This document shows positions 2,380 through 62,240 of a stretch of 64,000 bases of DNA, one piece after another. Below the pieces are notes generated by a model. That model was not told the origin of the DNA. It saw only the letters and a list, made by a program, of their open reading frames with translations, and ran no database searches. The stretch is from a phage. The position numbers and the translations under genes were made by a program. The DNA lies in sequence record PZ445451.1; one strand, given 5' to 3'. Positions within the stretch are counted from its first letter, which is position 1; each line of letters starts with the position of its first letter.

Positions 2380-5199
2380 ATGTATCCTATTCCTCTATTT
2401 ATGTCAACAACACCAGCTTCAGTAGTAACAGCTACATCTATAACTACTTCCTCTATTGGTATTGCAATAGTTGGTGGTAAAAAACAACTGACATACACAG
2501 TTACACCGGAAGATGGTGCATTATTTGATATAGCTTTTTCATCTTCAGATAATACCAAAATGGTTATAGATAATAGTGGTATGATGGAGTTTGTTGCCGA
2601 AGGTGGTTTTGATGCAATAATGACAGCTAAAAATAATTTAGGTGCTGTCTTAACTGATCAATCTGGTGGTTATGCTTCAGAATTAAGTGTGTACACTGAA
2701 AGTCTATCGGCTATGGATGTAGGCACTACTCAACAGTTAGTTGCTACAATCAGTCCAGAAGGTGCTAAAGACCTTCCAGATATGGTAATTACATACACCA
2801 CAACAGATCCAGAAGTAGCTACTGTAAGCCCTACAGGGTTAATAACTGCTCTTAAAGATGGCGGTTGCCGTATAGGTTGTACTGCAACGTATCAAGGAAC
2901 AGTTGTGGCCTCTGATAGGTCTTATTTAGGTGTTAATGCTATTCCTGTTATTTCTAATGTAACAGCCGTGGCAAACAGTTATGGAGACGTTCGTGTTGCT
3001 TGGGATGTAACTGATCCACTAGACGGTGATACTTATACTGTAGAAGTATTAGATTTAAGTGATAATAGTGTTCAGTGGACTACAACAACCACGAATACTC
3101 ATGCTTACTTTGATATCTCTGACTCTATTCCTCTTTATGGGTTTGCTCCAACATACCTTAAAATTAGCGTTAAGAGCACCAAAGCAGCAGCCGTTATCTT
3201 TAATAACTCAATAGCTACAGATGATTCATTCATTAAAGAAGTTATTGTCTTTGCTGGACAAGATAACGTAAATGCACACTTTACAGAACTATCTGGTGCA
3301 AATAAAGCAGCAATGAGTAGCACAACAGCCCGTAATGCATATGCTGCGCAACGTGGTTTAGCAAATGCTGAAGTTCTTCCGTTAAATACAGCTTCTGGAT
3401 CATCAGCAGCAGATAAATATGCTGACGATAAAGCTGGAACAGGTACACCAGACAATTACTGGTATGATCTGGATAACACAGCAGATGGGCCATGCTTAAC
3501 TAACTTTATCACTAAAGTCACACCTTATGCAAGTAAGGTTAAAGCAATTATTTGGGGACAAGGTGAAAATGATGCTGTATCAGCATCTTCGACTGTTGCA
3601 GGTAGGTACAGTAACACTACACGTTACCATGATGCTACGATAGCTATCTTTGATAAGATGCGTACAATAGTTCCTGCTTCTCAAGCAAAAATTGTTTGGC
3701 AGATCCTAGGACGTTCTTATTTATATGGTGTAGAAGTTAATGGTGTGGATTGGCAGAAGTACAGAAATGTACAAAGAACCATCTCTACAGCACGTGATGA
3801 TGTTATCATTGGTTCTTGGGTAGATGGTGCTGAACGTTACAGTGGCTATGTTTATGAAGAAGGTATTGATGGTCGTATCCATTATGTTTCTTCTGTATAC
3901 CAAACAGCAGCTACAAAACTTGCTAAATCGGCAGCAGACGGTACAGACTTAACATCAACGTCACCTGTTTGGGTTGATATGGCTGTTCCAACTGGAGCAA
4001 CAGCCACTTCCCAATCTAATCAAGATACAATTTTAGCATGGGATGCTCAAGGCTATAGTAAACACTACTTCCGTAATATTAACGTCTTAACCGCATCTGT
4101 ATTAACTGAACAAACGCTTAATACGAACAGTTATACGTTTACCTATGCAGATCAAGTAGAACAATATGGTTTTGCAGCAGGAACTGCTATATTTGATGTT
4201 GCATATTATGACGAAGCAAATGATGTGTTATCTCCTTTAGTACGTTTTAATGTTAATATTACAGCAGGAACCGAAGAAGATAAACCTGTCGTGATGGACT
4301 ATGATTTGACGCAAGAAACTCTCCCATCAGATGTTAAGGTTAATGGTGGGAACTCTTTTGCTCGTGCCTCTGGAGATAAACTTGTAGCCACTAACACCTT
4401 GGTTGCCCCGTTGGAGTATGTTGGTACTACCCCTGTAGGTAGACGTGTAACAGCTAACACAGCTACACAAATTTTTGTCAACAACGCCTTAACAAGTGCA
4501 AGCCCGTGGGTAAAGACCAACTTAACTGTTGCAGCTTCATCTGATAACTCTCCGGCTGGAACTACTGCTAATGTATTCAAATTAACTCCGACTACAACCT
4601 CTGGTAGTCATATCTTAACTGCAACATATACTAACGCGTACAACATATCTGCCGGACGTAACTGGTCTGCCTCTGTTTTCTTGAAAGCGAACGGGATTAC
4701 TAAGGCCAAACTAAGATTAAAAGCAGGAACTGAAGTTAATGAGGGTACTTTTGATTTAGCAGCAGGTACATTCACAGGAAGTGAAGCTAATATTATATCT
4801 ATGGGCAACGGTTGGTATCGTGCTATTCTGCATAAAACAGGGATAGCCAAACAGTCCTCCATAAGTTTTGAAATAATTGCCTTGGATGCAACTGGTGCGG
4901 AGATTTTCGCTGGAAATGGTACTAGTAACCTTGCAGTTTGGTTGCCACAGCTTGAAGGTGCTTCTACAGGAGAAACATCAAAAGCTGGATCGCCTTATGT
5001 CTGCACATATCCTGGAAATTTAGGAGGAGTATCCTTCACTATACCAAGGAACGGACATACTGGTGTGGATGTTTACTATTCCAACGGAGACGTTGTTCGT
5101 GACGTATTCTCTGGTACGGCATCTACTTGGACAATAAACTACTCCAGCTTGTACGATTGGGGATCAGTCTTTATTACAGGTTTGAAATATTACGACTAA
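2380..5199 (+). CDS. Tail fibre/tailspike with Ig-like domain and SGNH/sialate-O-acetylesterase-like motifs
   Basis: ATG after AAGGAG; Big_2-like segment (VGTTQQLVATISPEG...VATVSPTGLITALKDGG); FAGQDN and WGQGEND motifs resembling SGNH esterase blocks; 939 aa. Confidence 0.65.
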   Translation: MYPIPLFMSTTPASVVTATSITTSSIGIAIVGGKKQLTYTVTPEDGALFDIAFSSSDNTKMVIDNSGMMEFVAEGGFDAIMTAKNNLGAVLTDQSGGYASELSVYTESLSAMDVGTTQQLVATISPEGAKDLPDMVITYTTTDPEVATVSPTGLITALKDGGCRIGCTATYQGTVVASDRSYLGVNAIPVISNVTAVANSYGDVRVAWDVTDPLDGDTYTVEVLDLSDNSVQWTTTTTNTHAYFDISDSIPLYGFAPTYLKISVKSTKAAAVIFNNSIATDDSFIKEVIVFAGQDNVNAHFTELSGANKAAMSSTTARNAYAAQRGLANAEVLPLNTASGSSAADKYADDKAGTGTPDNYWYDLDNTADGPCLTNFITKVTPYASKVKAIIWGQGENDAVSASSTVAGRYSNTTRYHDATIAIFDKMRTIVPASQAKIVWQILGRSYLYGVEVNGVDWQKYRNVQRTISTARDDVIIGSWVDGAERYSGYVYEEGIDGRIHYVSSVYQTAATKLAKSAADGTDLTSTSPVWVDMAVPTGATATSQSNQDTILAWDAQGYSKHYFRNINVLTASVLTEQTLNTNSYTFTYADQVEQYGFAAGTAIFDVAYYDEANDVLSPLVRFNVNITAGTEEDKPVVMDYDLTQETLPSDVKVNGGNSFARASGDKLVATNTLVAPLEYVGTTPVGRRVTANTATQIFVNNALTSASPWVKTNLTVAASSDNSPAGTTANVFKLTPTTTSGSHILTATYTNAYNISAGRNWSASVFLKANGITKAKLRLKAGTEVNEGTFDLAAGTFTGSEANIISMGNGWYRAILHKTGIAKQSSISFEIIALDATGAEIFAGNGTSNLAVWLPQLEGASTGETSKAGSPYVCTYPGNLGGVSFTIPRNGHTGVDVYYSNGDVVRDVFSGTASTWTINYSSLYDWGSVFITGLKYYD

Positions 5200-27212: not shown

Positions 27213-27929
27213 TTATTTCAGTTTGTAAACAATTACATTTAAACCTTTGTTTACTAGAGTTTCTTCGATCATAAGTTTTACAATATTCCAAGAACCTCCA
27301 GCCAAACCACAACCAAGCATTGGTAAACCTACAATTTTACCGCCTGAAGATACAACATCGTCTCCCATACTATCTAGCGCATTGTAGATAGCTTCATAAT
27401 TCAGGTCACGCTTACCTTCCTCACGACTACTATAACCATATTGTCCATATAAATTATAAATTGTCAAATTGTTTTCTGTATATTTGGTAAACGTACCTAA
27501 TTTTTTATAATCACCACGTTTAGTGGCACAATCTGCTTTAAACGCACCAGGCCACTTGCTTTTAATTTTTGGTGCAATACCACTACCCATAGTGCAAAAA
27601 CAGTTACAGCAGTGTGCTATAGCGTCTATATCGCCTCTCTCGGCTGCTGCTAAAAGATCACCGTATACCTCAACGATACCTGCTGGATAACTTGTTACAA
27701 TTTCATCTTCCCAGTACATTTTCTCTACACCACCGATCAGTGCAAAGTTTTGTGTAATGCGATCATCAATATAGTTAAGACCTGAAACATACACAGCGTA
27801 TTCATCCTGTGCTGTAATACCTTGCACACGAATTCTTAAGACACCATCTTTATCTGTTGCTACACGCCCAAAATCTTTTTCTGTAATATTGGTGATAGGA
27901 TCTCCGAAAGTCATTACTTTATTAGACAT
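27213..27929 (-). CDS. Rossmann-like nucleotide-processing domain protein (macro- or LOG/SLOG-like)
   Basis: DAIAHCCNCFCTMGSGIA and VGLPMLGCGLAGGSW Gly-rich loops resembling macro or LOG motifs; start set at ATG after AAGGGG, overlapping PRTase stop by 8 nt. Confidence 0.45.
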   Translation of the reverse strand: MSNKVMTFGDPITNITEKDFGRVATDKDGVLRIRVQGITAQDEYAVYVSGLNYIDDRITQNFALIGGVEKMYWEDEIVTSYPAGIVEVYGDLLAAAERGDIDAIAHCCNCFCTMGSGIAPKIKSKWPGAFKADCATKRGDYKKLGTFTKYTENNLTIYNLYGQYGYSSREEGKRDLNYEAIYNALDSMGDDVVSSGGKIVGLPMLGCGLAGGSWNIVKLMIEETLVNKGLNVIVYKLK

Positions 27930-28779
27930 AATAATCCCCTTTAACATTAGATTTGTTGATAATGTTGCTTTCAAAAAATTGACGTAGGAAATCAAAGTTC
28001 TCTTTGTATTTTTCAACGTTATTGTAACCTTCTGCAAGGCAACCAAAGAACAGTTGTTCTACATAATACAAAGGAAGTTGTGAAAGTGCAATTTTAAAAT
28101 CAACTTCGCTTTGACTCATTAGATACTTAATAGGACGAACCAAACATTTAGCATCAGTTTCTTGCTTAATCATTTTAATAAAAGCTGCCAGATTGTTGAT
28201 ATAGTTGAAGTTAAGTGCAGCTTCGGTATTGGCTTCTGTACCTTCATACTTTGCAAAGTACAGGAAAAACGTATCGTTTTCAACACCTTCTTTGTCTAAA
28301 ATTTCAATAAGTTTTTCTTCGTGTGTTCCTGTAATATTAACATCATCAATGAAAATCAGAGTTTTATTACCCCAGAAATCACGATTGATAGAGAAAGTGT
28401 CACCATCGATCAAAGCCTTACGATCTTCTTTGCTAAGAAATCCATAATCATTAATGTAGCTCACTTTACGATGAACGATATCCCACTCCACTGCTTTACC
28501 TCCTTTGATAGAGATTAGGTAGTTGAGGTGATCTACAAAATGTTCAGATAACACTGTAGCTGCATTTTTCACATAGTTATATGGAGATGGAATAACAACA
28601 AAACTTTCATTTACCAGTCGTTCTTCATACTTAGAAAAGAAACTTTCAGCCAGAATGCGCCCCATTCTTTTTGCTGCCTGGTTACTGCCAAACTTTAGCT
28701 TGGAATAATCTGCAATGTTAAATTTTGCTTCCTTCAGGTTAGTAAAAGTATTAGCAAAATGTTGAATTTGATTACGCAT
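27922..28779 (-). CDS. Type I phosphoribosyltransferase-domain protein
   Basis: PRPP-binding signature LIFIDDVNITGTHEE. Confidence 0.6.
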   Translation of the reverse strand: MRNQIQHFANTFTNLKEAKFNIADYSKLKFGSNQAAKRMGRILAESFFSKYEERLVNESFVVIPSPYNYVKNAATVLSEHFVDHLNYLISIKGGKAVEWDIVHRKVSYINDYGFLSKEDRKALIDGDTFSINRDFWGNKTLIFIDDVNITGTHEEKLIEILDKEGVENDTFFLYFAKYEGTEANTEAALNFNYINNLAAFIKMIKQETDAKCLVRPIKYLMSQSEVDFKIALSQLPLYYVEQLFFGCLAEGYNNVEKYKENFDFLRQFFESNIINKSNVKGDYYV

Positions 28780-29428
28780 TAATAAGTTCCTCTTTTTTAA
28801 GTTTAGCCAACAAGTCTTCTGGATTAATAATATGACAGAACTTCATCCCTATGTCAACAGCTTTTCCATCATAGATCAAACTATCTCCAACGTGTAAGAT
28901 CTCCTCTGGTGCGAGATCAAACGTTACCATTTCATCAAAAGAGAGTTTAAAAAACCTGGGATCTGGTTTACACAAGCAAAACTCATCAGAAAAATGCATA
29001 AAGTCAAATGGTAATTTTGTCAAGCCAGAATATACAGCTAAGAAACTACCAGGTACAAAATTGGTATTGCTTTTAATACTCAAAGAATAGGTTGAACTTA
29101 GCTCTTCCAACTTCTTGCAAAGTTCAGGGTTTAATGTTGGAGGATGTTTTATAAACATTGCTAAACAGTCTCTTTTTAACCCATCCACCTTATCAAGATC
29201 AATGTTCAAATGAGCAGAAAGTGTTTCCCAAGCATTTCTAGATGTTCCACAAATGCCTTTTTCTGCTTTTAAATCCAAGAGAGTTTTTACCTCTTTATAT
29301 ACGGTAGCTGCTTCTACCTCAGAACAAGAGGCATACTCGGCAATAACCTTGTTGCGTTCTTCTGCATACAAAGGATTAGCAGTAATAAGAGTATTCCATA
29401 CATCAAAAGAAATATGCTTAACAGTCAT
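28772..29428 (-). CDS. HAD-superfamily hydrolase (phosphatase-like)
   Basis: N-terminal ISFDVWNTLI motif I-like block and C-terminal HVGDSLIYDGK motif IV-like block; overlaps PRTase start by 8 nt. Confidence 0.55.
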   Translation of the reverse strand: MTVKHISFDVWNTLITANPLYAEERNKVIAEYASCSEVEAATVYKEVKTLLDLKAEKGICGTSRNAWETLSAHLNIDLDKVDGLKRDCLAMFIKHPPTLNPELCKKLEELSSTYSLSIKSNTNFVPGSFLAVYSGLTKLPFDFMHFSDEFCLCKPDPRFFKLSFDEMVTFDLAPEEILHVGDSLIYDGKAVDIGMKFCHIINPEDLLAKLKKEELINA

Positions 29429-31486: not shown

Positions 31487-33282
31487 AAGTGTTTCTCCCT
31501 TTCTAGTACCTCTTGCATTTTACCTTTATTATAAGGGCGAGAGTTAGGAGCAGAAAGGTATCCTGACACTCTTCTGATCACAGATATGGATTCTTCTTCA
31601 TGATTTCCACAACTTGGACACTCGAAGCCTTTAGCTGTTGCCTTAAATTCACCATGAAAACCACATTTGAAACACTGATCTACAGGTTGGTTCACGCCAA
31701 AATAAGGAATTTTGTTGTAGGCATAATCTACAAGAGTTTCCAGTGCTTGCAAGTTATTTTTAAGGTTTGGTGTTTCTACATAACCTATGTTCCCACCATT
31801 ACTAATTTGTGCAAAACCTTCCTCATAATCCCATTTTTGGAACGGGGTAGTGTGCATCCATACAGGTTGATGGAAAGAGTTTGTCAAGTAGTCACGATCA
31901 ATAGAACCAGGATAGCGATCATTTAATGCTTTGGCAAATTTATAGCACAAGGATTCTGCTGGTGTTCCATACAAACTAAAAGCTAAACCAGAACGTTCTT
32001 TAAATGTGCAACAGATATCCTTCATATATTGAAGGATGTTTTTACCCATTGCTTTTGGATTGGTGTTATTTGGGTATAAAATCTCCATAGCTTCTGCTAA
32101 ACCTACATAACCGATACTAATAGAGGCATAACCACCTTCAAATAGTTTACCAATCTCTTCATTAGCTTCTAGTCGAGCTAAAGCCCCTTCCATAAACAAT
32201 GTAGGGTTTTGAGATGCTTTGGTATGTCTAATACGGTTAACACGTAGCATATGTGCCTTATACGCCATCTCCATATGTTGTTCCAGCAGTTCAGTAAATA
32301 AGATGCCCTTTTCACGGGATTCTGCTGCAATGATAGGTAAGTTTAAAGAAACTACGCCTAAATTGAAACGACCATCATATTTTTCACCTTGCTCTGTTGC
32401 ATAGTATGACAAGAAACTACGGCAACCCATGCTTGTGACGCGACCATCTGAAGATCCTGTAACTTCTTTGTTTAAAGGTACAGAGATAAAATCAGGATAA
32501 ATGCGTTCAGCACAACACTCCATTGCCAGTTGCTTCAGATCATAGTTTGGATCGCCAGCTTTCATGTTAACACCATCTTCCAAGAAGAAGATAACTTTAG
32601 GAAACACAGGAGTTACCCTATCTTTTCCTAATCCTTGTTTGTGCACCATTAGGTAGTTTTTAGTGATCATTCTACCAAAAGCAGAGGTATCCAAACCTAA
32701 ACTAATTGTTATAAAAGGTGACTGACCATTTACACTCATTAGGGTGTTCACCTGGTAGATTAAAGTTTGCATTGCATCATAGACCTGTTTATCTACCATA
32801 CGCATAGCAATATCATAATCGCCAACATCGGCATATATTTTATTAAAACTTGCTTTAACGTATTGACTAAGCCCAGTATCAATATGTGCACAAGTTTGTC
32901 CACCATATTGGCTAGAAGCTACTGCTTGAATAATTTGAGTTAGGACAGTAGTCGCTACACCGATAGACTTTGGTTTTTCAATATGTGCATTACCAATACG
33001 GAAACCGTTCTCAAGCATATCTTGGTAATTTACCAGGCAACAATTAGTTAGAGGTGAGAGTAAATAATCTAAATCGTGAATGTGACCATACCCACTTTTA
33101 TGCCATTCTGCCAGATCTTCCGGTAAAATATGGGTCATTGCCATGTGCTTGCTTAGGATACCTGCTAGTAAGTCTCGGTGAGTATTAACAATCATTGCAG
33201 GTTTGTTTGCATTTTCACGAGTAAATTCTTCGGATGTTTGTTCGAGGAATCCGATTACATCCTCATATAGTTTTTGGGTCAT
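31483..33282 (-). CDS. nrdD: Anaerobic ribonucleoside-triphosphate reductase
   Basis: C-terminal zinc ribbon CFKCGFHGEF...CPSCGN and glycyl-radical motif RRVSGY; start set at ATG 5 nt after GGAGG instead of track start inside hairpin. Confidence 0.9.
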   Translation of the reverse strand: MTQKLYEDVIGFLEQTSEEFTRENANKPAMIVNTHRDLLAGILSKHMAMTHILPEDLAEWHKSGYGHIHDLDYLLSPLTNCCLVNYQDMLENGFRIGNAHIEKPKSIGVATTVLTQIIQAVASSQYGGQTCAHIDTGLSQYVKASFNKIYADVGDYDIAMRMVDKQVYDAMQTLIYQVNTLMSVNGQSPFITISLGLDTSAFGRMITKNYLMVHKQGLGKDRVTPVFPKVIFFLEDGVNMKAGDPNYDLKQLAMECCAERIYPDFISVPLNKEVTGSSDGRVTSMGCRSFLSYYATEQGEKYDGRFNLGVVSLNLPIIAAESREKGILFTELLEQHMEMAYKAHMLRVNRIRHTKASQNPTLFMEGALARLEANEEIGKLFEGGYASISIGYVGLAEAMEILYPNNTNPKAMGKNILQYMKDICCTFKERSGLAFSLYGTPAESLCYKFAKALNDRYPGSIDRDYLTNSFHQPVWMHTTPFQKWDYEEGFAQISNGGNIGYVETPNLKNNLQALETLVDYAYNKIPYFGVNQPVDQCFKCGFHGEFKATAKGFECPSCGNHEEESISVIRRVSGYLSAPNSRPYNKGKMQEVLEREKHF

Positions 33283-33301
33283 TAATCCTCCGTGGAAAAT
33301 A

Positions 33302-33324
33302 AAAGCCAGCATTAAGCTGGCTTT
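33302..33324 (-). terminator. Hairpin AAAGCCAGC-ATTAA-GCTGGCTTT upstream of nrdD
   Basis: 9 bp stem followed by TTATTTTCC on minus strand. Confidence 0.55.
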
Positions 33325-33371: not shown

Positions 33372-34322
33372 TTAGTCAAGGTTTTTGGTAATACGTGTAC
33401 AACCATCAGAAGTCAAACCGTCAACTTGAGTTTCCCAAGTGCCATGAATATTTCGGAACAATGTTGTTACACCTTTTGGTTCATTAATAATGATTGCCAT
33501 AACAAGTTTAGGATCGATAACAGACATAATCTTTTCCTCAATACCCTCTGTAATAACATTATTACGCACAATATTAATTACATCTTCTTGTACAGAAAGG
33601 GTACTTACGTTCTTAAGAGTATATACCTGCTGCGTAGTGTAAATGATACGAACATAACTTACAGAACGAGTAGGCACAGGTTTACGCGGTCGGCGAAAAC
33701 GTGGTTTTGGTGAAGATTCAGTCTTACTTTCATTTTTTGAATAATACTCCTCAAACAGTTTAGTAAATGTTTTTACATCAACTACAAACCGATCTTTCCT
33801 ATATGGAGAATTCTTATGTGCACCATTAATACCACTGTTTTCATCGAAGAAAGTAATGTTTTCTTCAGTTGAATACATTAGATAATGATCTGCATTTTTC
33901 CAATGTGGTTGTGGACAATGAGGATTACAAACGGAAAGCAAGTAATTAATATTTTCTTCCGTGGCCTCAGTATCAAGGAAACACGTATTATGCACAGTCA
34001 GTTGTACTTTTTCAGCCATATCTTTTTCTTTATCCTCTTTAGCAAGATATTCAGTACGAATAATCTCCAGAAAACCTTCAGGTGTTACTTCCATAAATTT
34101 ATATTCAGGATGAAGCTCCATATATTCAAATCCACAACCATCTAATTGCTGTAGAAAGTTAGGGTAGAAGAACAAATCATTAACACTGTGAATCAGATCA
34201 TTGATTTCTGCTTCAGTTGTGTAACCAAAACTCTTGTGAATTGCTTCGTTAAGAATATGCAGGATACCCATCTCTTCTGCTGCTTTTTTAACTTCCAGTT
34301 TATTAGCGTAAAATGCAATCAT
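33372..34322 (-). CDS. Hypothetical protein
   Basis: 316 aa ORF; no recognisable motif. Confidence 0.5.
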   Translation of the reverse strand: MIAFYANKLEVKKAAEEMGILHILNEAIHKSFGYTTEAEINDLIHSVNDLFFYPNFLQQLDGCGFEYMELHPEYKFMEVTPEGFLEIIRTEYLAKEDKEKDMAEKVQLTVHNTCFLDTEATEENINYLLSVCNPHCPQPHWKNADHYLMYSTEENITFFDENSGINGAHKNSPYRKDRFVVDVKTFTKLFEEYYSKNESKTESSPKPRFRRPRKPVPTRSVSYVRIIYTTQQVYTLKNVSTLSVQEDVINIVRNNVITEGIEEKIMSVIDPKLVMAIIINEPKGVTTLFRNIHGTWETQVDGLTSDGCTRITKNLD

Positions 34323-34339: not shown

Positions 34340-34774
34340 TTAGTTTAAAATTTCTTTTGCAATGGTAGAAGCAAGTTTTCCATCATATTGATTCGGATAC
34401 TCTGCTTTAAGGTGTTTCATCATATCTGGCATTTTCTTGCCTGTCAAGGCAAATTCTTCAGCAATAGCTCGAAGATCATCTTCAGATAGCATTTCTGGTA
34501 AATATTTTTCCAGAATGGTGATATCACGCATAGCTCGCTCACATTTGCTAATGGAGGCATTAACTTTCTTAAGCGAGTCTAGTTCCTCTTTAGCGTGTGC
34601 AATACCAATCTTAACAATGTTAATCATAATATCATCTTCTGATTTATTCAGATTTGCCTTTTGAGTACGAGCAAGGTCAAACTCACCAATAATATTAGTT
34701 AACAAAGCAAAAGCACCCTTATCGGTTGTACGTGCTAAGATACGATCTGCTTTCATTTGTGTCACAATAGACAT
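34340..34774 (-). CDS. GatB/YqeY-domain protein
   Basis: ILEKYLPEMLSEDDLRAIAEEFALTGKK...GKLASTIAKEIL matches the C-terminal signature of YqeY/GatB-type domains. Confidence 0.55.
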   Translation of the reverse strand: MSIVTQMKADRILARTTDKGAFALLTNIIGEFDLARTQKANLNKSEDDIMINIVKIGIAHAKEELDSLKKVNASISKCERAMRDITILEKYLPEMLSEDDLRAIAEEFALTGKKMPDMMKHLKAEYPNQYDGKLASTIAKEILN

Positions 34775-34786
34775 TCTATTCTCCTC

Positions 34787-35359
34787 TTATTTGCTAATGC
34801 TTTGAATCTTATTTACAACACGGTTTATTGCCAGTGAAGCCCTAGGCTCCGCAATACCTGTTGCATAGATATAAGGATGACCTTTTGGAGACTCCCTCAT
34901 ACCGAATGAACCTAATTCTAAACCATATTCATCCTCTACGTCAACCCCAATATTAGTGGGTACTAAATATGTTTTAACTCCATAATAAGTAGAGAAGAAA
35001 CAGCGCATAGCGTTAGCATACTCTTCAATTGTAGCATCAGGGTAGAACTCAATCAACTCCAATTTCAAGAAAATATTAAAATGGGTATCATCTAAATTTT
35101 CTTCTGTGCGGTAACATGGTGTTAGTGCCATATACGGATTACCTACTGCAAATTCAAAACCATCCTTCTCCATTTGCAGGAAAGATTGTTCTGCACTAGC
35201 TACATAGTATTTACCGTTAGGATGCCCTAATGGGCGATCCTCTTTATTTTCTGGTAGTGTATACGCCAGTATATCAGCATCCACGAGATATGGAACTTCT
35301 AACATTTGTGCAAATCGACCATAGTAATCAATAGCTTGAGCTATTACTGCAACATTCAT
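34787..35359 (-). CDS. Minimal class II aminoacyl-tRNA-synthetase-like catalytic core (class IIb-like)
   Basis: CYRTEENLDDTHFNIFLKLE resembles class IIb motif 2 (FRNEG...HNPEFTMLE); GIAEPRASLAI resembles motif 3; only 190 aa, no anticodon-binding domain. Confidence 0.45.
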   Translation of the reverse strand: MNVAVIAQAIDYYGRFAQMLEVPYLVDADILAYTLPENKEDRPLGHPNGKYYVASAEQSFLQMEKDGFEFAVGNPYMALTPCYRTEENLDDTHFNIFLKLELIEFYPDATIEEYANAMRCFFSTYYGVKTYLVPTNIGVDVEDEYGLELGSFGMRESPKGHPYIYATGIAEPRASLAINRVVNKIQSISK

Positions 35360-35607
35360 GATCGACCTCCATTGCGGAATGCACGTTTAGTAATGTTTGA
35401 CATAGTGATCAAATCTTGAAGCGTCATACCAGGAAAATGCTGTTCAAGAACACCTTCAACAGCGCCTACAATATCTGATAACTCAATAAGTTGCATCAGC
35501 TTGCAATCTTGATCAATAGCATCTTGAAGTTCATAAAGCTCTTCTTGAATCTTAGCAACAGAACCATATTCCTCTTTGCTAATCTCCTTCAAATGATACC
35601 CTGCCAC
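35356..35607 (-). CDS. Small all-alpha protein, possibly MazG-like NTP pyrophosphohydrolase
   Basis: EExxExxDAI...ELSDIVGAVEG acidic helix pattern; weak. Confidence 0.3.
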   Translation of the reverse strand: MAGYHLKEISKEEYGSVAKIQEELYELQDAIDQDCKLMQLIELSDIVGAVEGVLEQHFPGMTLQDLITMSNITKRAFRNGGRS

Positions 35608-35617
35608 TTTAACCCCC

Positions 35618-38392
35618 TTAGTTTATCAGTTTATTTATGTCTGGTAAAAGATTTATTTCACCTAAGAAATCACCTTCACCTTCCTCTAGCCAACTCTCAT
35701 ATGCTTGTGCATGATTATAGTTACCATCAAAAGAATCTGCAACAAATTTTTCTACAGTTTTTCGAGATGTGCCAGCGCCAAATACACCAAGTTTAATACT
35801 ATTGATCGGTAAAGTGGTGCTTGTTGGTACTTTCTCTGTTGCAACACGGTTGATATCTATAATCTCCTGTACGGTTGTGTTCCATTGTAAGCATTTAACA
35901 CAACGGGTATGCGCTACATACAGTAGGTTTCGCTCTGCCTCTTCCAGTCCTACCCATTCACCAGTTTTTTTATCATAATTGGAAGGAAAATCATTAGCAA
36001 CAATAACCTGATCCCACTCCAAACCTTTAGACTTGTGTGCTGTAGTCAATGTGACTTTTGCTGTAGGAGAATTTCTATGCGTTCTAAGTGTATGTGCTAT
36101 AGTGTTTGCCTTGCCAGAAACTACGATGTTTAACAAGCGTTTAGCATCTGGATCAGCCTCTGCACACTCAACAAATTCATTCCAGTCTGCGTAAGGTAAT
36201 ACAGTTTCATGTTTTACTTTCTCAATATCTCCTCTCCGAAGAGCATTAACACTATCTACCATAGAGATAAAATCCCTGGTATCTACGTTAATAATAATTT
36301 CTTCCCCATCTGCAATACGATCCATTGCCTCCATAAGCAAGGTTAAATTCTTGCGAAAGATGATAGTGTAAGGTTTTGTATAGTCTACAACATCTGATTT
36401 GTAGCTACCTACTACAGTATCAAAGCCTTTACCAACCAAAGGATGACGCAAAGGTTCTTTATCGCTTAAAATCATATTGGCAATGTTTGCCACTTTGGGG
36501 CCAAAACGGAAGCAAGCAGTTAATGGAAGCTCTGCCCCATACTTAGCTGTTTCAATCATCATATTAGAGCTACCTCTAAATTGATAAATGCAGTTGTGGC
36601 TAAGAATTTCATTGCCAAAGAAGTTAGCAGTATCCTCTACTTCAATATCATAATAGATACCCTCACTATCTACAATGTCCACAATCTCTTCTGCCGTTAC
36701 AGTATCACCATCTTTTACCAACACAGACATGCCTTTAAACAAACCCGCTGCCGGAATTAAGTTATATTTGGCACTGTTCACAGAGGACATGCATTCTTTT
36801 AAAGATGCAAACGGAACTATTTCAAGGATCTTTTGTGCAAAACTCAATGCTTCACGATAAGAATTGAAATATTTACGTACACGGTAACGACCTTCCAATT
36901 TAGCAGCACTTACGCTTACACCTGCTTTAATCAGTGAAGAATAGATCGGCATTTCACTTTCTGTCCACTCAAAACTAACTTGTGTTCCTTTACAACCTTG
37001 TGCTCGCAAAGTCACTGTTAGCATTTTTCTTTCATCTACTGCACAATTGATGCTGTGCCAGTGTGGATAAGCAAAATGATAATCTTTATCCTCTAAAAGT
37101 TTAAAACCATTTTGTCCGAATTGTTCAAAGATGTTATTGATCCTTTCTTGATTAATGCCGCGTGAACTTGCTTCAAATACACAAGTAGGAATGCCATATT
37201 GTAAACTGTATGCCATTTCTTTTTCCATAGCAGCTTCACGGTTTTCAACAATATCCAACACCCATAATTTCTGTGCTTTTTCAGAACGTGTACGTTGCCC
37301 CAGTTTAGAAAAACCTTCTTTATCATCGAATTTGTTAGTGATCCCTACTCGGAAACCTAAATCTTTCCTCCACATTAGGTATACCACCATCTGATCATCT
37401 TTCAGAACATAGGATGAAGCCCAAATACGATGGTTATGTGTCATATCTAAAGTTTTACCTGTGGCAGTAATAATATTCCTACCTTTTGTACGTGTAGATA
37501 AAGTCTTATTTGTTACTTTTCTAAATGTAATTTTACCATTAGAATAAGACTCTACCTTATCACCGATTTGTAGGTCTTTCATTGTAACCTGACCATTCTC
37601 GGTATTAAGTACCGTGTTTTCCGACACACATTGGAATTCATCGCCCACTACCACAATTTGTTTTGCAGATTTAGCATTTCGCAGAATAGACAAGAATGCA
37701 GGGTTAACATCCTGGAATTCATCACCAAAAATAATGTCATAACCAAGATCAGCACCTGATAACTCAAACAATTTTACATAGGTGTCATGCGTCATCAAAG
37801 TATCTGTGTTAGGATCAATGCGCTCTCGCCACAATTGTTTTGCATACTTAACTACTTCTGTAATTAGTTTGTGTTCGTTAATACCTTTTCTTTTAATATC
37901 TGCAAGATGTACACCAGGGAAATGTTTACGGCTGATAAAAGGATCATCCGAAAATTCAAACTTACCTACGGTTTGCTTGATCATTAAACCAATCATAGCA
38001 CGAGTTAAAAGTGTTTTCCCTCGTTTATCAATAAGATTATTAATCTTAAATTTCTTTGCTATCTCACTACCTGTACCTGCAACGTTAACATACTGTCCTT
38101 CTGGTCGTGACAGTTTTGCACGTAAACGATGATCCAGGAATTGATAGCAAATGGAATGCAATGTACGGCATTCTACATTTGGTGGCATCTTACGCCGTGC
38201 TTCTTCTGCCATGCTTTTATTGAAAGCTAAGTAAAGAATGCGATCTTCTGTACTGTTAGCCAGCAAATAAAGTGTTGACGTTTTGCCTGATCCAGATTTA
38301 GCTTGGATAGTTAAAAAACGATGGTCTGGAAAAGCCTCCTTAATAGCTGTTTGCTCTTCTGTTGGAGTAAAACTCAACTCTTTCTTAGCCAT
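35618..38392 (-). CDS. UvrD/Rep-family (SF1) DNA helicase interrupted by an intein
   Basis: Walker A AKSGSGKT, motif II IIFGDEFQD, motif III split as VVVGDEFQ / CIYQFRGSS by a 346-residue insert; start set at ATG after AGAGAGG. Confidence 0.85.
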   Translation of the reverse strand: MAKKELSFTPTEEQTAIKEAFPDHRFLTIQAKSGSGKTSTLYLLANSTEDRILYLAFNKSMAEEARRKMPPNVECRTLHSICYQFLDHRLRAKLSRPEGQYVNVAGTGSEIAKKFKINNLIDKRGKTLLTRAMIGLMIKQTVGKFEFSDDPFISRKHFPGVHLADIKRKGINEHKLITEVVKYAKQLWRERIDPNTDTLMTHDTYVKLFELSGADLGYDIIFGDEFQDVNPAFLSILRNAKSAKQIVVVGDEFQCVSENTVLNTENGQVTMKDLQIGDKVESYSNGKITFRKVTNKTLSTRTKGRNIITATGKTLDMTHNHRIWASSYVLKDDQMVVYLMWRKDLGFRVGITNKFDDKEGFSKLGQRTRSEKAQKLWVLDIVENREAAMEKEMAYSLQYGIPTCVFEASSRGINQERINNIFEQFGQNGFKLLEDKDYHFAYPHWHSINCAVDERKMLTVTLRAQGCKGTQVSFEWTESEMPIYSSLIKAGVSVSAAKLEGRYRVRKYFNSYREALSFAQKILEIVPFASLKECMSSVNSAKYNLIPAAGLFKGMSVLVKDGDTVTAEEIVDIVDSEGIYYDIEVEDTANFFGNEILSHNCIYQFRGSSNMMIETAKYGAELPLTACFRFGPKVANIANMILSDKEPLRHPLVGKGFDTVVGSYKSDVVDYTKPYTIIFRKNLTLLMEAMDRIADGEEIIINVDTRDFISMVDSVNALRRGDIEKVKHETVLPYADWNEFVECAEADPDAKRLLNIVVSGKANTIAHTLRTHRNSPTAKVTLTTAHKSKGLEWDQVIVANDFPSNYDKKTGEWVGLEEAERNLLYVAHTRCVKCLQWNTTVQEIIDINRVATEKVPTSTTLPINSIKLGVFGAGTSRKTVEKFVADSFDGNYNHAQAYESWLEEGEGDFLGEINLLPDINKLIN
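36593..37630 (-). mobile_element. Intein in helicase motif III
   Basis: Begins CVSENTVLN, block B THNH, ends YYDIEVEDTANFFGNEILSHN followed by Cys; excision rebuilds canonical GDxxQ-IYxFRG. Confidence 0.65.
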
Positions 38393-38393
38393 T

Positions 38394-38870
38394 TCAACCT
38401 CTCTTAATTTGTTTAACAAGCATAGGAACAAAATCTCGTTTTAAAATTTGTTCAATAATGTGATCAGGTAGCTGTTGGAAATTATAATTAAAAGCTACTG
38501 TCTCACCTTTAGGTGTTTCTACCCGCACATATAACATGTTACGAAGTTTATCCACTTGTGCTGTATATTCTAAACCACGTAATTGATGCATTGCAAACAT
38601 CAAATCATCAGGTTCAGTTTGGAATCTATCACTTGTCTGCATCAAGGATAAGGTAAAAGGTAGATTTTCCCTAAGAGCTACCTTCTTAGGCACTAATGAA
38701 GGGAAATACTCCCCAATAACTTCCTGTGTAAGCTGAATACACTCTTTTTCAAGCTGGTTTTGTTCCTTGAGTTCACAAACACTTTTTTGTAAAGTGTTAA
38801 CCTCTTTTTGCAAGGCTGCTAGTTGAGCATTTAACTTTCTTTTTTGATTACGACCAAAACGTTTAGACAT
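38394..38870 (-). CDS. Hypothetical protein with N-terminal coiled coil
   Basis: 158 aa ORF. Confidence 0.5.
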   Translation of the reverse strand: MSKRFGRNQKRKLNAQLAALQKEVNTLQKSVCELKEQNQLEKECIQLTQEVIGEYFPSLVPKKVALRENLPFTLSLMQTSDRFQTEPDDLMFAMHQLRGLEYTAQVDKLRNMLYVRVETPKGETVAFNYNFQQLPDHIIEQILKRDFVPMLVKQIKRG

Positions 38871-59745: not shown

Positions 59746-60089
59746 TATTCTTTTTTCACGATGGAAACAACACGTAAAGAATAGGCGTAAAGGTGGCGTA
59801 AAACCATCTAAAACCGACTGTAACCGCTTAAACAAGGTAGGAATGATTAATCACCTTACCAGGGTGAAAAAGCTGTTATAAAGCTACCTAGAGCGTTTAA
59901 AGCACATAGGGAATAATTTGCTTTTTATCTTGCCTTTTATCCTGCTTTTGATTATTATTATGGAACGGGCGGCACCTGGGGACAGGGGAAGATAATCACC
60001 GGAAGATCCCGCTATATATTGATAGCTAATACCTATTAAACAACAAAACATCAAAGGAATAAACTATCAAATCTTTACAATCCTACCTA

Positions 60090-60150
60090 TTGACACAGGA
60101 TCACCCTTATACTAATATGTATCCCGTAGGGCGGGAAATGGTTTCCCGCT
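60090..60150 (+). promoter_or_regulatory. Promoter plus 5' stem-loop unit (PeSL-like)
   Basis: TTGACA-17-TAATAT, hairpin GCGGGAAA-TGG-TTTCCCGC 60130-60150. Confidence 0.7.
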
Positions 60151-60168
60151 TGATATAGGAATCATACC

Positions 60169-60402
60169 ATGATCGAACAAATTAAAAGCACTACACCAAA
60201 TGTTAACGGCAATGTTTCACACTTTATCGGTGATAATGAAAGGGGCACACCATACGCCGCCGTAACCGTGCAACCTAATGGCGATTATTGGTTTACCGTG
60301 TACGGATCATACTCTTTCGGACGCCCGGCACATGATAAGATCTTGCAAGCGGTTAAACCTGCGGGGAAGAATATCACAGCAGAAAAATTTTATAAAAAAT
60401 AG
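60169..60402 (+). CDS. Early protein, unknown function
   Basis: 77 aa ORF. Confidence 0.55.
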   Translation: MIEQIKSTTPNVNGNVSHFIGDNERGTPYAAVTVQPNGDYWFTVYGSYSFGRPAHDKILQAVKPAGKNITAEKFYKK

Positions 60403-60403
60403 C

Positions 60404-60432
60404 TTGCTTTATTTCTTCTGTTAACTTATAGT
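60404..60432 (+). promoter_or_regulatory. sigma70-like promoter TTGCTT-17-TATAGT
   Basis: Acceptable -35/-10; downstream GTAGGGC start conserved but hairpin degenerate. Confidence 0.4.
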
Positions 60433-60477
60433 TATCGCGTAGGGCAAACAATTTTAAACGGTAAACGAGGAATCACC

Positions 60478-60861
60478 ATGAGCAATATCATCAACCTGGC
60501 AGCGACTGTAAACGGTAAAGATTTTAACGGCGCTGTAGACCGTGATCCTATGTGGTGCTTATCAGTGTTTAAAGGCGACCTGGTTGAAGTTAGAACAACC
60601 GAAGGCTATAGCGATGATTATAAATGCGAGATCCATTTACATAACTGGTACACGGGGAAAACTTATGCGCTGAATCACGCATTTATCGGGAAAATTGAAT
60701 ATCGCGAAATGATCGACGAAGAAACGGGGCAAGATTTTAGCGATTATGTTTATATCCGTTCAGAAACATTAGCCGAACGCTTGATCGAGAAAATGAAAGC
60801 AAAAAATAAAATTAATTTAGCTCATTGGCTTGATATAACAAATGATCCGGCTTACAAGTAA
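60478..60861 (+). CDS. Early protein, unknown function
   Basis: 127 aa ORF, RBS ACGAGGAA. Confidence 0.55.
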   Translation: MSNIINLAATVNGKDFNGAVDRDPMWCLSVFKGDLVEVRTTEGYSDDYKCEIHLHNWYTGKTYALNHAFIGKIEYREMIDEETGQDFSDYVYIRSETLAERLIEKMKAKNKINLAHWLDITNDPAYK

Positions 60862-60876
60862 ATAACATTTCACACC

Positions 60877-60903
60877 AGGGCGCACAAAGCGCCCTTTCTT
60901 TTT
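60877..60903 (+). terminator. Rho-independent terminator AGGGCGC-ACAAA-GCGCCCT + TTCTTTTT
   Basis: 7 bp GC stem and T-rich tail ending the early gene array. Confidence 0.65.
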
Positions 60904-61106
60904 ACCTAAATAAAGATGATAGCTTTTACCTATCAAAAACGTTCACCGAAAAAAGTGAATAGATCGCGGTATCGAGCTAATCAAGGAGCAGATGAACAAC
61001 CATACCATGAAGATCATAAGGCGCTTACAACGTGTTTTAGACCGCTTATTTTTAATTTCTCAATGTAACTATCGGGCAAAAACAGCCTTTTTCTTGTCTT
61101 TCCTCT

Positions 61107-61182
61107 TAAATGATAATCATTCTTATTTATAGCTGATTATTTATGCAATAAACTGCATAATGCAATAATGATAATCATTCTT
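61107..61182. promoter_or_regulatory. Two Fur-box-like sites
   Basis: AAATGATAATCATTCTTA (61108-61125) and AATAATGATAATCATTCTT (61164-61182); the latter matches the Fur consensus at 16 of 19 positions. Confidence 0.45.
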
Positions 61183-61573
61183 AACTTATGACCATCTAAC
61201 CTATAAAATAATAAGTTATCTAACTAAATTAAAACTAATTATCCCACCTTTATTTATAACTTACTTTTACTATCTCATTGATAACCTTATATTAAACAAC
61301 AATAACCAATATAAATCATTACTAAGCTAACTATAATCTATCTAACCCTTAAAACTATAACTATAATCTATCGAATTGTTGCACAAAGTAACTATTAAAT
61401 TGTTAGTAACTTTACTAAATAATTAATATCCTATCTATTTATGATCTAATCTTTACCTTACTATCTATTACCTAAATAACCATTTCATACAGAAATTATT
61501 TCATACAATAACTATAACAAGAAATATAATTCGCAAGCGTATCATTAGCAGCCTATGCCGGACACATAGGCGG

Positions 61574-61719
61574 CTAATAATAACGCAACTACACACCCCA
61601 CATAATAACCATCACCGATAGTTATTATTTGTGCTTATGTAGCTTGCAACAATTGCAAGCGCAACAATATACATGGTATATTGTATCCCTTACATTGTTG
61701 CGGTGCGTTATTATTAGCT
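61574..61719. repeat. Long nested imperfect palindrome
   Basis: Outer arms GCTAATAATAACGC (61574-61587) and GCGTTATTATTAGC (61706-61719); inner CGCAACAATA / CATTGTTGCG; GCTTGCAA-CAA-TTGCAAGC at 61643-61661. Confidence 0.6.
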
Positions 61720-62045
61720 AATGTTTGGAACATTGGCTATAATATAAGCTACATATAATAAGCTATACAATAATAAACATAATGAATAATGACACTGATG
61801 ATCATAATGCGCCACCTTCCAGGGGGCGCTATGTGAACACAAAGAAATCTTTCTTGTCAAGAAAAATATCACCATTATTGCGCAAAATTATTTATATCTG
61901 AACAGATGATTTTTCATACTATTGCCCCCTATAGTATCCCTATTTGTTGTAATGTATTCCCCTATTTGTTGAGCCTACTCTCTTAAAAGCGCAATAAATT
62001 AGAATTATCTTGATTTTTAGGTAGTTTTATAGTATAGAAAATATG

Positions 62046-62064
62046 CAAATGATAATCATTATCA
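62046..62064. promoter_or_regulatory. Fur-box-like site
   Basis: GCAAATGATAATCATTATC matches GATAATGATAATCATTATC at 17 of 19 positions. Confidence 0.5.
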
Positions 62065-62240
62065 GCTATCTTCCACAGGTGGCACTATTTCACGCCAGAT
62101 CATTTCATTTGGCAAGGTGTATATAGATGTTTAGAAATGCCAAGCCATTGATTTACTTAGAATTTATCTGTTTTGTTGTGAGTAGTGCCTTTCTTGCTCA
62201 GAAAATAATCAAAAGTCTTATAAGTCATTGAATGATAATG

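Follow-up and report, generated by a model that had tools for sequence, protein, structure and literature searches.

The 64,000-nucleotide stretch of phage DNA considered here (sequence record PZ445451.1, hereafter the window) comes from Escherichia phage PaulScherrer (Bas60, MZ501100.1), a phi92-like phage of the genus Justusliebigvirus in the Stephanstirmvirinae, and its positions are converted to those of the MZ501100.1 record by adding 32675. Our subject is a 190-amino-acid (aa) protein encoded at 34787-35359 (bas60_0080; PHROG 4806), a minimal class II catalytic core of the kind found in seryl-tRNA synthetase (SerRS) and referred to below as the core, together with the small protein that accompanies it. 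All genes of this region lie on the minus strand and form a single tightly packed unit, in which the core gene is preceded by an open reading frame (ORF) for an 83-aa MazG/HisE-like all-alpha protein (35356-35607; bas60_0081; PHROG 6408), the conserved partner with which it makes up the module described here, and is followed by the gene for a 144-aa protein with a Pfam YqeY match (34340-34774; bas60_0079). The original prediction for this locus, which was made from the letters of the sequence, had correctly located the 190-aa ORF and had coupled it with the YqeY-domain gene, while the 83-aa ORF that overlaps the start of the core gene was overlooked.

When the core was searched as a single sequence it gave no match in PDB or NCBIfam and only sub-threshold noise in Pfam, and its homology is detectable only with family profiles. 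It has been assigned to PHROG 4806 under the label 'histidyl tRNA synthetase' (E = 1.5e-70), the GenBank labels of the gene vary between 'putative tRNA synthetase', 'putative seryl-tRNA synthetase' and 'histidyl tRNA synthetase', and the names that databases give to the family disagree as well ('histidyl', 'seryl' or 'aspartyl/glutamyl' tRNA synthetase). An alignment of 33 homologues (A1) contains motif 1 (…GY…VPYLV), motif 2 (TPCYRxE…FLKLE) and motif 3 (GTGxAEPR) of the class II enzymes, so that motifs 2 and 3, which had already been recognized in the 190-aa ORF, are indeed there and are joined by motif 1. The AlphaFold2 (AF2) model of the core (pLDDT 95.2, pTM 0.89) has the fold of a class II synthetase catalytic core, which is what the comparison of folds proposed beforehand as a check was to look for. 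The protein is a member of the class II aminoacyl-tRNA synthetase catalytic-core superfamily, with an antiparallel beta-sheet and motifs 1-3.

With regard to its closest relatives, the family profile matched SerRS best among PDB structures (2dq3, E = 5e-5), with matches also to aspartyl- and pyrrolysyl-tRNA synthetases, and hhalign aligned core residues 14-129 to residues 186-322 of Escherichia coli SerRS with a probability of 85.6%. Bacterial-type SerRS, a class IIa enzyme, is the best sequence-profile match, and SerRS rather than histidyl-tRNA synthetase (HisRS) is the nearest relative of the core in both sequence and fold. The subclass is IIa (SerRS-like), and the class IIb assignment made earlier has to be given up, the TPCFR and GSGLAxxR signatures being those of SerRS. 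The signature common to both is TPC(F/Y)RxE...FxKxE...ExxS...G(S/T)GxAxxR, and the sole invariant cysteine of the core (C82) aligns to Cys266 in the 'TPCFR' of E. coli SerRS. On the other hand, the core measures ~190 aa as against 430 aa for SerRS, the N-terminal coiled-coil arm is absent, 6 residues have gone from the motif-2 loop and ~15 from the insertion that separates the ExxS strand from motif 3, and one helix is left of the C-terminal tail. In contrast to SerRS, moreover, the core is essentially restricted to phages, where a MazG-like protein accompanies it. A tRNA-binding domain is lacking, the sequence beginning at motif 1 (from residue 9 on) and 185 residues aligning to the catalytic domain only, and because the N-terminal tRNA-binding arm is absent the protein is not a canonical seryl-tRNA synthetase. 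It is a SerRS-derived class II core pared to the adenylate-forming domain.

The active site was followed through 275 non-identical members of the core family (30-98% identity), the counterparts in E. coli SerRS being mapped by hhalign in the N-terminal half and by motif match in the C-terminal half; all the elements named here are read on the minus strand. The motif 1 region (residues 9-25, AIDYYGRFAQMLEVPYL; 35285-35335) aligns to 'GYSENYVPYLV' of E. coli SerRS, and the motif-1 proline, P23, is kept in 260/275 members. The serine-binding 'TxE' loop has its equivalent in S55-A56-E57 (35189-35197), where S55 corresponds to T237 and E57 to E239, and in motif 2 (T80-E101, TPCYRTEENLDDTHFNIFLKLE; 35057-35122) R84, F97 and E101 correspond to R268, F287 and E291, respectively. 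Further on, the ELGSFGMR segment with E148 and S151 (34895-34918) was aligned by eye to 'REISSCSN', the Mg/ATP-binding strand of SerRS, and motif 3 (Y165-R173, YATGIAEPR; 34841-34867) matches NGSGLAVGR of the E. coli enzyme with the same spacing, T167 corresponding to S391 and R173 to R397. Within these elements, six positions (S55, E57, R84, F97, K99 and E101) are kept in every one of the 275 members, and E148, G150, S151, T167 and R173 in 274 of them.

It has been demonstrated in the crystal structure of the E. coli SerRS-SerSA complex that T237, E239, R268, E291 and S391 touch the seryl moiety, that F287 stacks on the adenine and that R397 closes the conserved motif-3 block, while in Staphylococcus aureus SerRS a Mg ion is coordinated by Glu349 (10.1101/586255), which is taken here as the equivalent of core E148, the glutamate of the ExxS strand. 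Each residue of the E. coli enzyme that contacts Ser-SA has a conserved counterpart in the core. As judged from the alignments, this invariant set is the signature of what is predicted to be a working site for ATP, Mg and serine (or a near analogue), and not of a decayed paralogue.

The connection between the core and the 83-aa protein is a close one. The stop codon of the partner and the start codon of the core overlap in an ATGA (35356-35359, minus strand), and the GGAGG ribosome-binding site of the core sits within the last codons of the partner (…NGGRS), the two genes being a translationally coupled pair. Small homologous ORFs adjoin the core gene in phiTE (Pectobacterium), in the Phapecoctavirus phage ukendt and in Caulobacter phage CcrSC; in Acinetobacter phage Berthold the partner domain forms the N-terminus of a 207-aa protein, and in Microcystis phage LMM01 it is fused at the C-terminus of the core. 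Across 101 related loci the partner domain is on the strand of the core in 97, and it abuts the core upstream (53), abuts it downstream (9), is fused to it (10) or lies further off (25); C-terminal fusions to the partner domain, 260-274 aa long, account for 7 of the 150 best core-family representatives. Phage records with the partner number 264 and those with the core 273, and the counts by genus are nearly identical (Escherichia 113 vs 112, Caulobacter 13 vs 13, Pectobacterium 10 vs 10). All-vs-all clustering of the ORFs of the 101 loci gave no third conserved neighbour gene. Gene fusion, gene order and phyletic profile all identify the 83-aa upstream ORF as the conserved partner of the core.

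As to the nature of this partner, the Pfam family PRA-PH (HisE) matches 8 of 13 partner members weakly (best E 1e-3), the protein of the window reaching 15.2 bits vs a 21.3-bit cut-off, and with E values of 0.09-0.4 the partner profile matched in PDB three HisE structures and the MazG-like protein SSO3215 (1vmg). These matches align on the EExxE...ExxD motif, and in 1vmg the aligned part covers the metal-binding EExxE. The AF2 model consists of three helices (pLDDT 90.7). In an alignment of 42 sequences (A3) the acid motif E22-E23-x-x-E26-x-x-D29 (EELYELQD; 35521-35544, minus strand) is invariant, as are E42 and D45 of a second acid motif, E42-x-x-D45 (ELSD; 35473-35484, minus strand), an N-terminal G-Y-H and a C-terminal T-x-R-x-F-x-x-G-x-R. 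In the all-alpha nucleoside triphosphate (NTP) pyrophosphohydrolase superfamily, EExxE…ExxD forms the Mg/triphosphate site. The gene already carries the label 'putative phosphoribosyl-ATP pyrophosphatase' in one GenBank record, and the partner looks like a predicted MazG/HisE-type pyrophosphohydrolase with an EExxExxD...ExxD acid motif. A function as phosphopantetheine carrier was considered and rejected, because its one candidate serine, that of ELSD (S44), is not conserved and some of the fused homologues have A or T there. In the fusions, 8-12 residues separate the motif-3 arginine of the core from the invariant (G)YH of the partner.

A truncated class II core that is partnered with an enzyme acting on ATP-derived nucleotides recalls HisZ-HisG, all the more as HisE/PRA-PH is the nearest Pfam family of the partner, and it could be suggested that the core is a non-catalytic regulatory subunit, a sensor of ATP and/or serine that would exert allosteric control over the MazG-like pyrophosphohydrolase in the way HisZ does over HisG. 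The PHROG name 'histidyl tRNA synthetase' and the obligate partnership with a second enzyme would both agree with this, and there is a precedent for a class II paralogue serving as a regulatory subunit, HisZ itself being without adenylation activity (PMC9437257). It is because the catalytic residues of the core are invariant, whereas HisZ has no adenylation activity, that this explanation is disfavoured: the arginines of motifs 2 and 3, the Glu and Ser that bind Mg and the Phe that stacks on the adenine, unchanging through the 275 sequences, go beyond what ligand sensing needs. Moreover, the core is nearer to SerRS than to HisRS by sequence and fold, and neighbour-ORF clustering in the 101 loci gave no HisG-like conserved neighbour. 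Overall, we regard a HisZ-like role as improbable.

The combination of an adenylate-forming site with a predicted pyrophosphohydrolase also allows for a module of dinucleoside polyphosphates. SerRS, like other class II enzymes, is known to make diadenosine tetraphosphate (Ap4A) and related Ap4N in a side reaction, and in such a scheme the core would turn its enzyme-bound seryl-AMP into Ap4A/Ap4N, which the MazG-like subunit would hydrolyse or shape, so that host alarmone or RNA-cap pools would be manipulated. The intact adenylate/ATP-binding site, the constant pairing with a family of enzymes that cleave nucleoside polyphosphates and the self-contained character of the two genes, with no conserved third component, are all compatible with this proposal; the known Ap4A hydrolases, however, are members of the Nudix, ApaH and HIT families and are not of the MazG type, which counts against it. 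Turnover of Ap4A has also served as the readout of SerRS chemistry in an assay (10.1101/586255). Nevertheless, the proposal derives from chemistry alone, no sequence feature points to Ap4A, and it has to be considered decidedly improbable.

The core family is large and is centred on phages. At 50% identity an exhaustive profile search returned 1,597 clusters, of which 1,082 had E < 1e-30; nearly all of the 1,597 have proteins of 175-200 aa. The core gene is present in 273 records of curated phage genomes. Its carriers include large E. coli, Acinetobacter (T4-like), Caulobacter (phiCbK-like), Pectobacterium, Cronobacter, Microcystis, Brevundimonas, Klebsiella and Erwinia phages, and the module also occurs in Bacillus phages, cyanobacterial phages and jumbo phages. 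When prokaryotes were scanned with one genome per species (185,579 species), 15 core loci were found, mostly in metagenome-assembled bins or on short contigs, and these probably reflect phage DNA; with so few loci of such a kind the family is essentially viral, and a cellular origin was rejected.

The YqeY domain that the original prediction saw in the ORF at 34340-34774 is genuine, with a match to Pfam PF09424 (33.8 vs 27 bits, E = 4.3e-8, residues 38-143) and to PHROG 1460 (E = 6e-37). It had been proposed on this ground that the aminoacyl-tRNA synthetase-like and YqeY proteins are a pair, which would serve aminoacylation or tRNA-dependent amino-acid modification, and within the window the arrangement is suggestive, since the two genes share one orientation and a ribosome-binding site lies in the 12 nt that separate them. 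The functional pair is not borne out by linkage across phages: YqeY is adjacent to the core in 2/101 loci, both of them phi92-like; in ukendt, which belongs to the sister genus Phapecoctavirus, the next gene follows the core directly with no YqeY gene between; and in Klebsiella phage 05F01 the YqeY gene (33.3 kb) and the module (107.9 kb) are unlinked, at a distance of ~74 kb. The phyletic pattern is also a different one, as YqeY occurs in 119 phage records, including 44 Vibrio phages in addition to Sinorhizobium, Ochrobactrum and Pseudomonas Lu11 phages, while Vibrio is outside the ten commonest genera for the core. A pairing of core and YqeY is very improbable, and the YqeY gene is a lineage-specific insertion or passenger in the operon, co-transcribed with the module and lying outside its conserved part.

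Taking these data together, the 190-aa protein may provide the catalysis in a phage-specific ligase of two components that adenylates serine and serves a non-canonical acceptor, a reading of the sequences whose chances of being right or wrong we see as evenly balanced. In this mechanism the core would bind ATP and serine (or a very close analogue) and form seryl-AMP and pyrophosphate, and the activated amino acid would then be passed to a non-canonical acceptor and not to tRNASer in the usual way; such an acceptor is expected because the tRNA-binding arm is gone and the motif-2 loop is shortened. The MazG-like subunit would dock beside the active site of the core and would most likely supply, hold or process a nucleotide substrate or product, this being either an NTP-derived acceptor or an NTP-type product that it would hydrolyse. 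Of the activity first suggested for this locus, the activation or ligation of an amino acid on a non-canonical target appears to stand, in view of the class II fold, the invariant SerRS adenylate-contact residues and the missing tRNA-binding domain, while the pairing with YqeY falls away. A more specific form of the ligase is put forward tentatively and is unlikely. In it, the smallest natural class II synthetase core known (~190 aa), as part of a heteromeric phage-specific enzyme, would make seryl-adenylate, while the MazG-like subunit would hold the nucleotide or RNA 3' end that receives the serine. If true, it would represent an aminoacyl-transfer reaction not described before, with which the phage would take over its host or counter immunity based on tRNA or nucleotides, as well as a natural case of how far a class II synthetase can shrink and yet function.

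Several observations speak against a serine-adenylating ligase. The strict conservation of the ligand residues would also suit a ligand-sensing, non-catalytic role, and it is only the length of the linker that suggests a docking of the partner close to the active site. In addition, tRNA genes are found within ~4 kb of the module in 16/94 related loci (a raw count, with no null to compare it with), and in 11 of those 16 the module is in or next to an array of at least three tRNA genes, so that a role related to tRNA stays alive. This last point is shared by an explanation in which the core is a minimal but genuine seryl-tRNA synthetase that charges host or phage tRNASer, or acceptor ends, with tRNA affinity given in trans by the MazG-like protein and, in phi92-like phages, by the YqeY protein as well. 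The SerRS active site is after all complete in it, a CCA-adding enzyme is encoded 3 kb from the module in phiTE, and YqeY/GatB-tail domains bind tRNA. Against this, the N-terminal coiled-coil arm needed to recognize the variable arm of tRNASer is missing, and it is the motif-2 loop, a contact to the acceptor stem in class II enzymes, that is 6 residues shorter. Core and partner are both acidic (isoelectric points of 4.6 and 4.7 in the window, with family medians of 5.1 and 5.3, respectively), which speaks mildly against unaided RNA binding, and the conserved surface of the partner is an acidic metal-binding motif and not a basic, RNA-binding one. Furthermore, 99/101 loci are without YqeY and there are no tRNA genes within the 64-kb window. 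A minimal SerRS is unlikely on balance, and the serine-adenylating ligase with a non-canonical acceptor is preferred.

Among the systems known so far, the logic of the core appears by analogy to resemble most that of the amino acid:carrier-protein ligases of the Bll0957/Atu2573 type, which likewise combine a SerRS-type core minus its tRNA-binding domain with an adjacent small (~80-aa) helical partner (PMC9437257). These ligases differ in being ~300 aa long and in descending from the zinc-dependent, methanogen-type SerRS, whereas the closest relatives of the core appear to be bacterial-type SerRS, and their partner is a phosphopantetheinylated carrier protein, whereas that of the core is MazG/HisE-like with an unconserved ELSD serine. 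EpmA (PoxA/GenX) and AsnA are also stand-alone class II cores that apply aminoacyl-adenylate chemistry to non-tRNA acceptors (a lysine of elongation factor P and ammonia, respectively), but they are class IIb paralogues of ~300-330 aa and have no MazG-like partner. A possible parallel in mechanism is offered by MazZ-PurZ of Z-genome phages, where a MazG-family pyrophosphohydrolase goes together with an enzyme that uses ATP to link an amino acid and an intermediate of a nucleotide pathway; PurZ is an adenylosuccinate-synthetase homologue and not a class II synthetase core, and no evidence for DNA modification was found in the phages that carry the module.

The resemblance to tRNA synthetases is in itself not new, because databases already flag the gene as 'tRNA synthetase-like'. 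The class II synthetase paralogues that have been catalogued comprise AsnA, EpmA, HisZ, the amino acid:carrier-protein ligases, SLIMP and Pol gamma B, and the 2022 review of these paralogues lists only SerRS2, SLIMP and the amino acid:carrier-protein ligases as SerRS derivatives, with no phage member and none this small (PMC9437257). No description of the core family or of its pairing with the partner was found in the literature. As far as we could find, it has not been described before that the active site is conserved in a SerRS-specific way, how large the family is, that it is confined to phages, that YqeY is to be dismissed as the partner and that the MazG-like gene is the obligate one. 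As a natural example, the family would illustrate how small a part of a class II enzyme suffices, which bears on the debate about minimal cores ('urzymes'). The module exists as a self-contained two-gene cassette, or as a single fused gene, in large phages, and recognition of the MazG-like gene as the partner provides a defined two-protein system for reconstitution.

Turning to the surroundings of the module, the first gene of the unit encodes a UvrD-type helicase that contains an intein (35618-38431, minus strand). The intein, at ~36590-37630, splits this UvrD/Rep-type protein directly upstream of the module, and the orthologue in ukendt is only 530 aa long and has no intein. At the other end, 3' of the YqeY ORF, lies a 316-aa ORF (33372-34322, minus strand) for which PHROG 15930 gives the label 'ribonucleotide reductase' and for which Pfam and NCBIfam gave no matches; its homologue in Phapecoctavirus is 453 aa long, with similarity limited to both ends. 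A terminator-like hairpin follows directly before nrdD (33302-33324, minus strand), with the sequence AAAGCCAGC-TTAAT-GCTGGCTTT and then TATTTT, and it probably terminates the transcription unit of helicase, 83-aa protein, 190-aa protein, YqeY protein and 316-aa protein. The annotated ATG of nrdD (33312) falls within this hairpin (region 33280-33324, minus strand), and past it there are a GGAGG ribosome-binding site and a second ATG (MTQKLY…, ~33282), for which reasons the true start of nrdD is probably 10 codons downstream of the annotated one.

Another run of genes, 5 kb downstream at ~27213-29428 (59888-62103 of the record), is annotated as encoding a macrodomain protein, a phosphoribosyltransferase and a HAD-like protein, and presumably resembles the gene sets for nicotinamide adenine dinucleotide (NAD) salvage of other phages; neighbour-ORF clustering gave no linkage of this run to the module in other phages. 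The defence-system models of PADLOC gave no meaningful match for the core, the partner or the YqeY protein. With regard to genomic context elsewhere, several divergent jumbo-phage lineages (among others L031, L033, L043, L051, L059, L062 and L060) carry the module in or beside tRNA arrays on the same strand, and in L060 it is near a phage tmRNA.

Some lineages show additional features. In Certrevirus loci (L002 at 3188-3715, L014, L015 and L017) the MazG-like gene is preceded by an additional ORF with a Cys-rich CGG(S/G)PRCCP at its end, and in the metagenomic protein P0085 a core homologue carries this C-terminal motif as a fusion; the Certrevirus CGGSPRCCP ORF was considered as a third component of the module and rejected as lineage-specific. 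Other core homologues (P0072 and P0082) end in zinc-ribbon-like C-terminal tails. Among the GenBank records MG065639, MG065645, MG065689 and MG065650, which are attributed to Campylobacter phages (A150, A145, A110a and B15, respectively), A150 and A145 are ~98% identical to E. coli phi92-like phages over this region, A110a has a YqeY protein that is 99% identical and B15 matches Phapecoctavirus-like phages; the Campylobacter host label of these four appears doubtful. Finally, three BFVD entries, K7QJG2 (Escherichia phage phAPEC8), A0A141HRQ2 and A0A6J5M2P2, are proteins of ~190-222 aa with a minimal class II core fold (15-19% identity, TM 0.64-0.77). The divergent 190-aa core of phAPEC8 prompted a search of the window by hidden Markov model, which gave no second core paralogue there, and the BFVD matches suggest further divergent mini-core families, including a possible second copy in phAPEC8-like phages.

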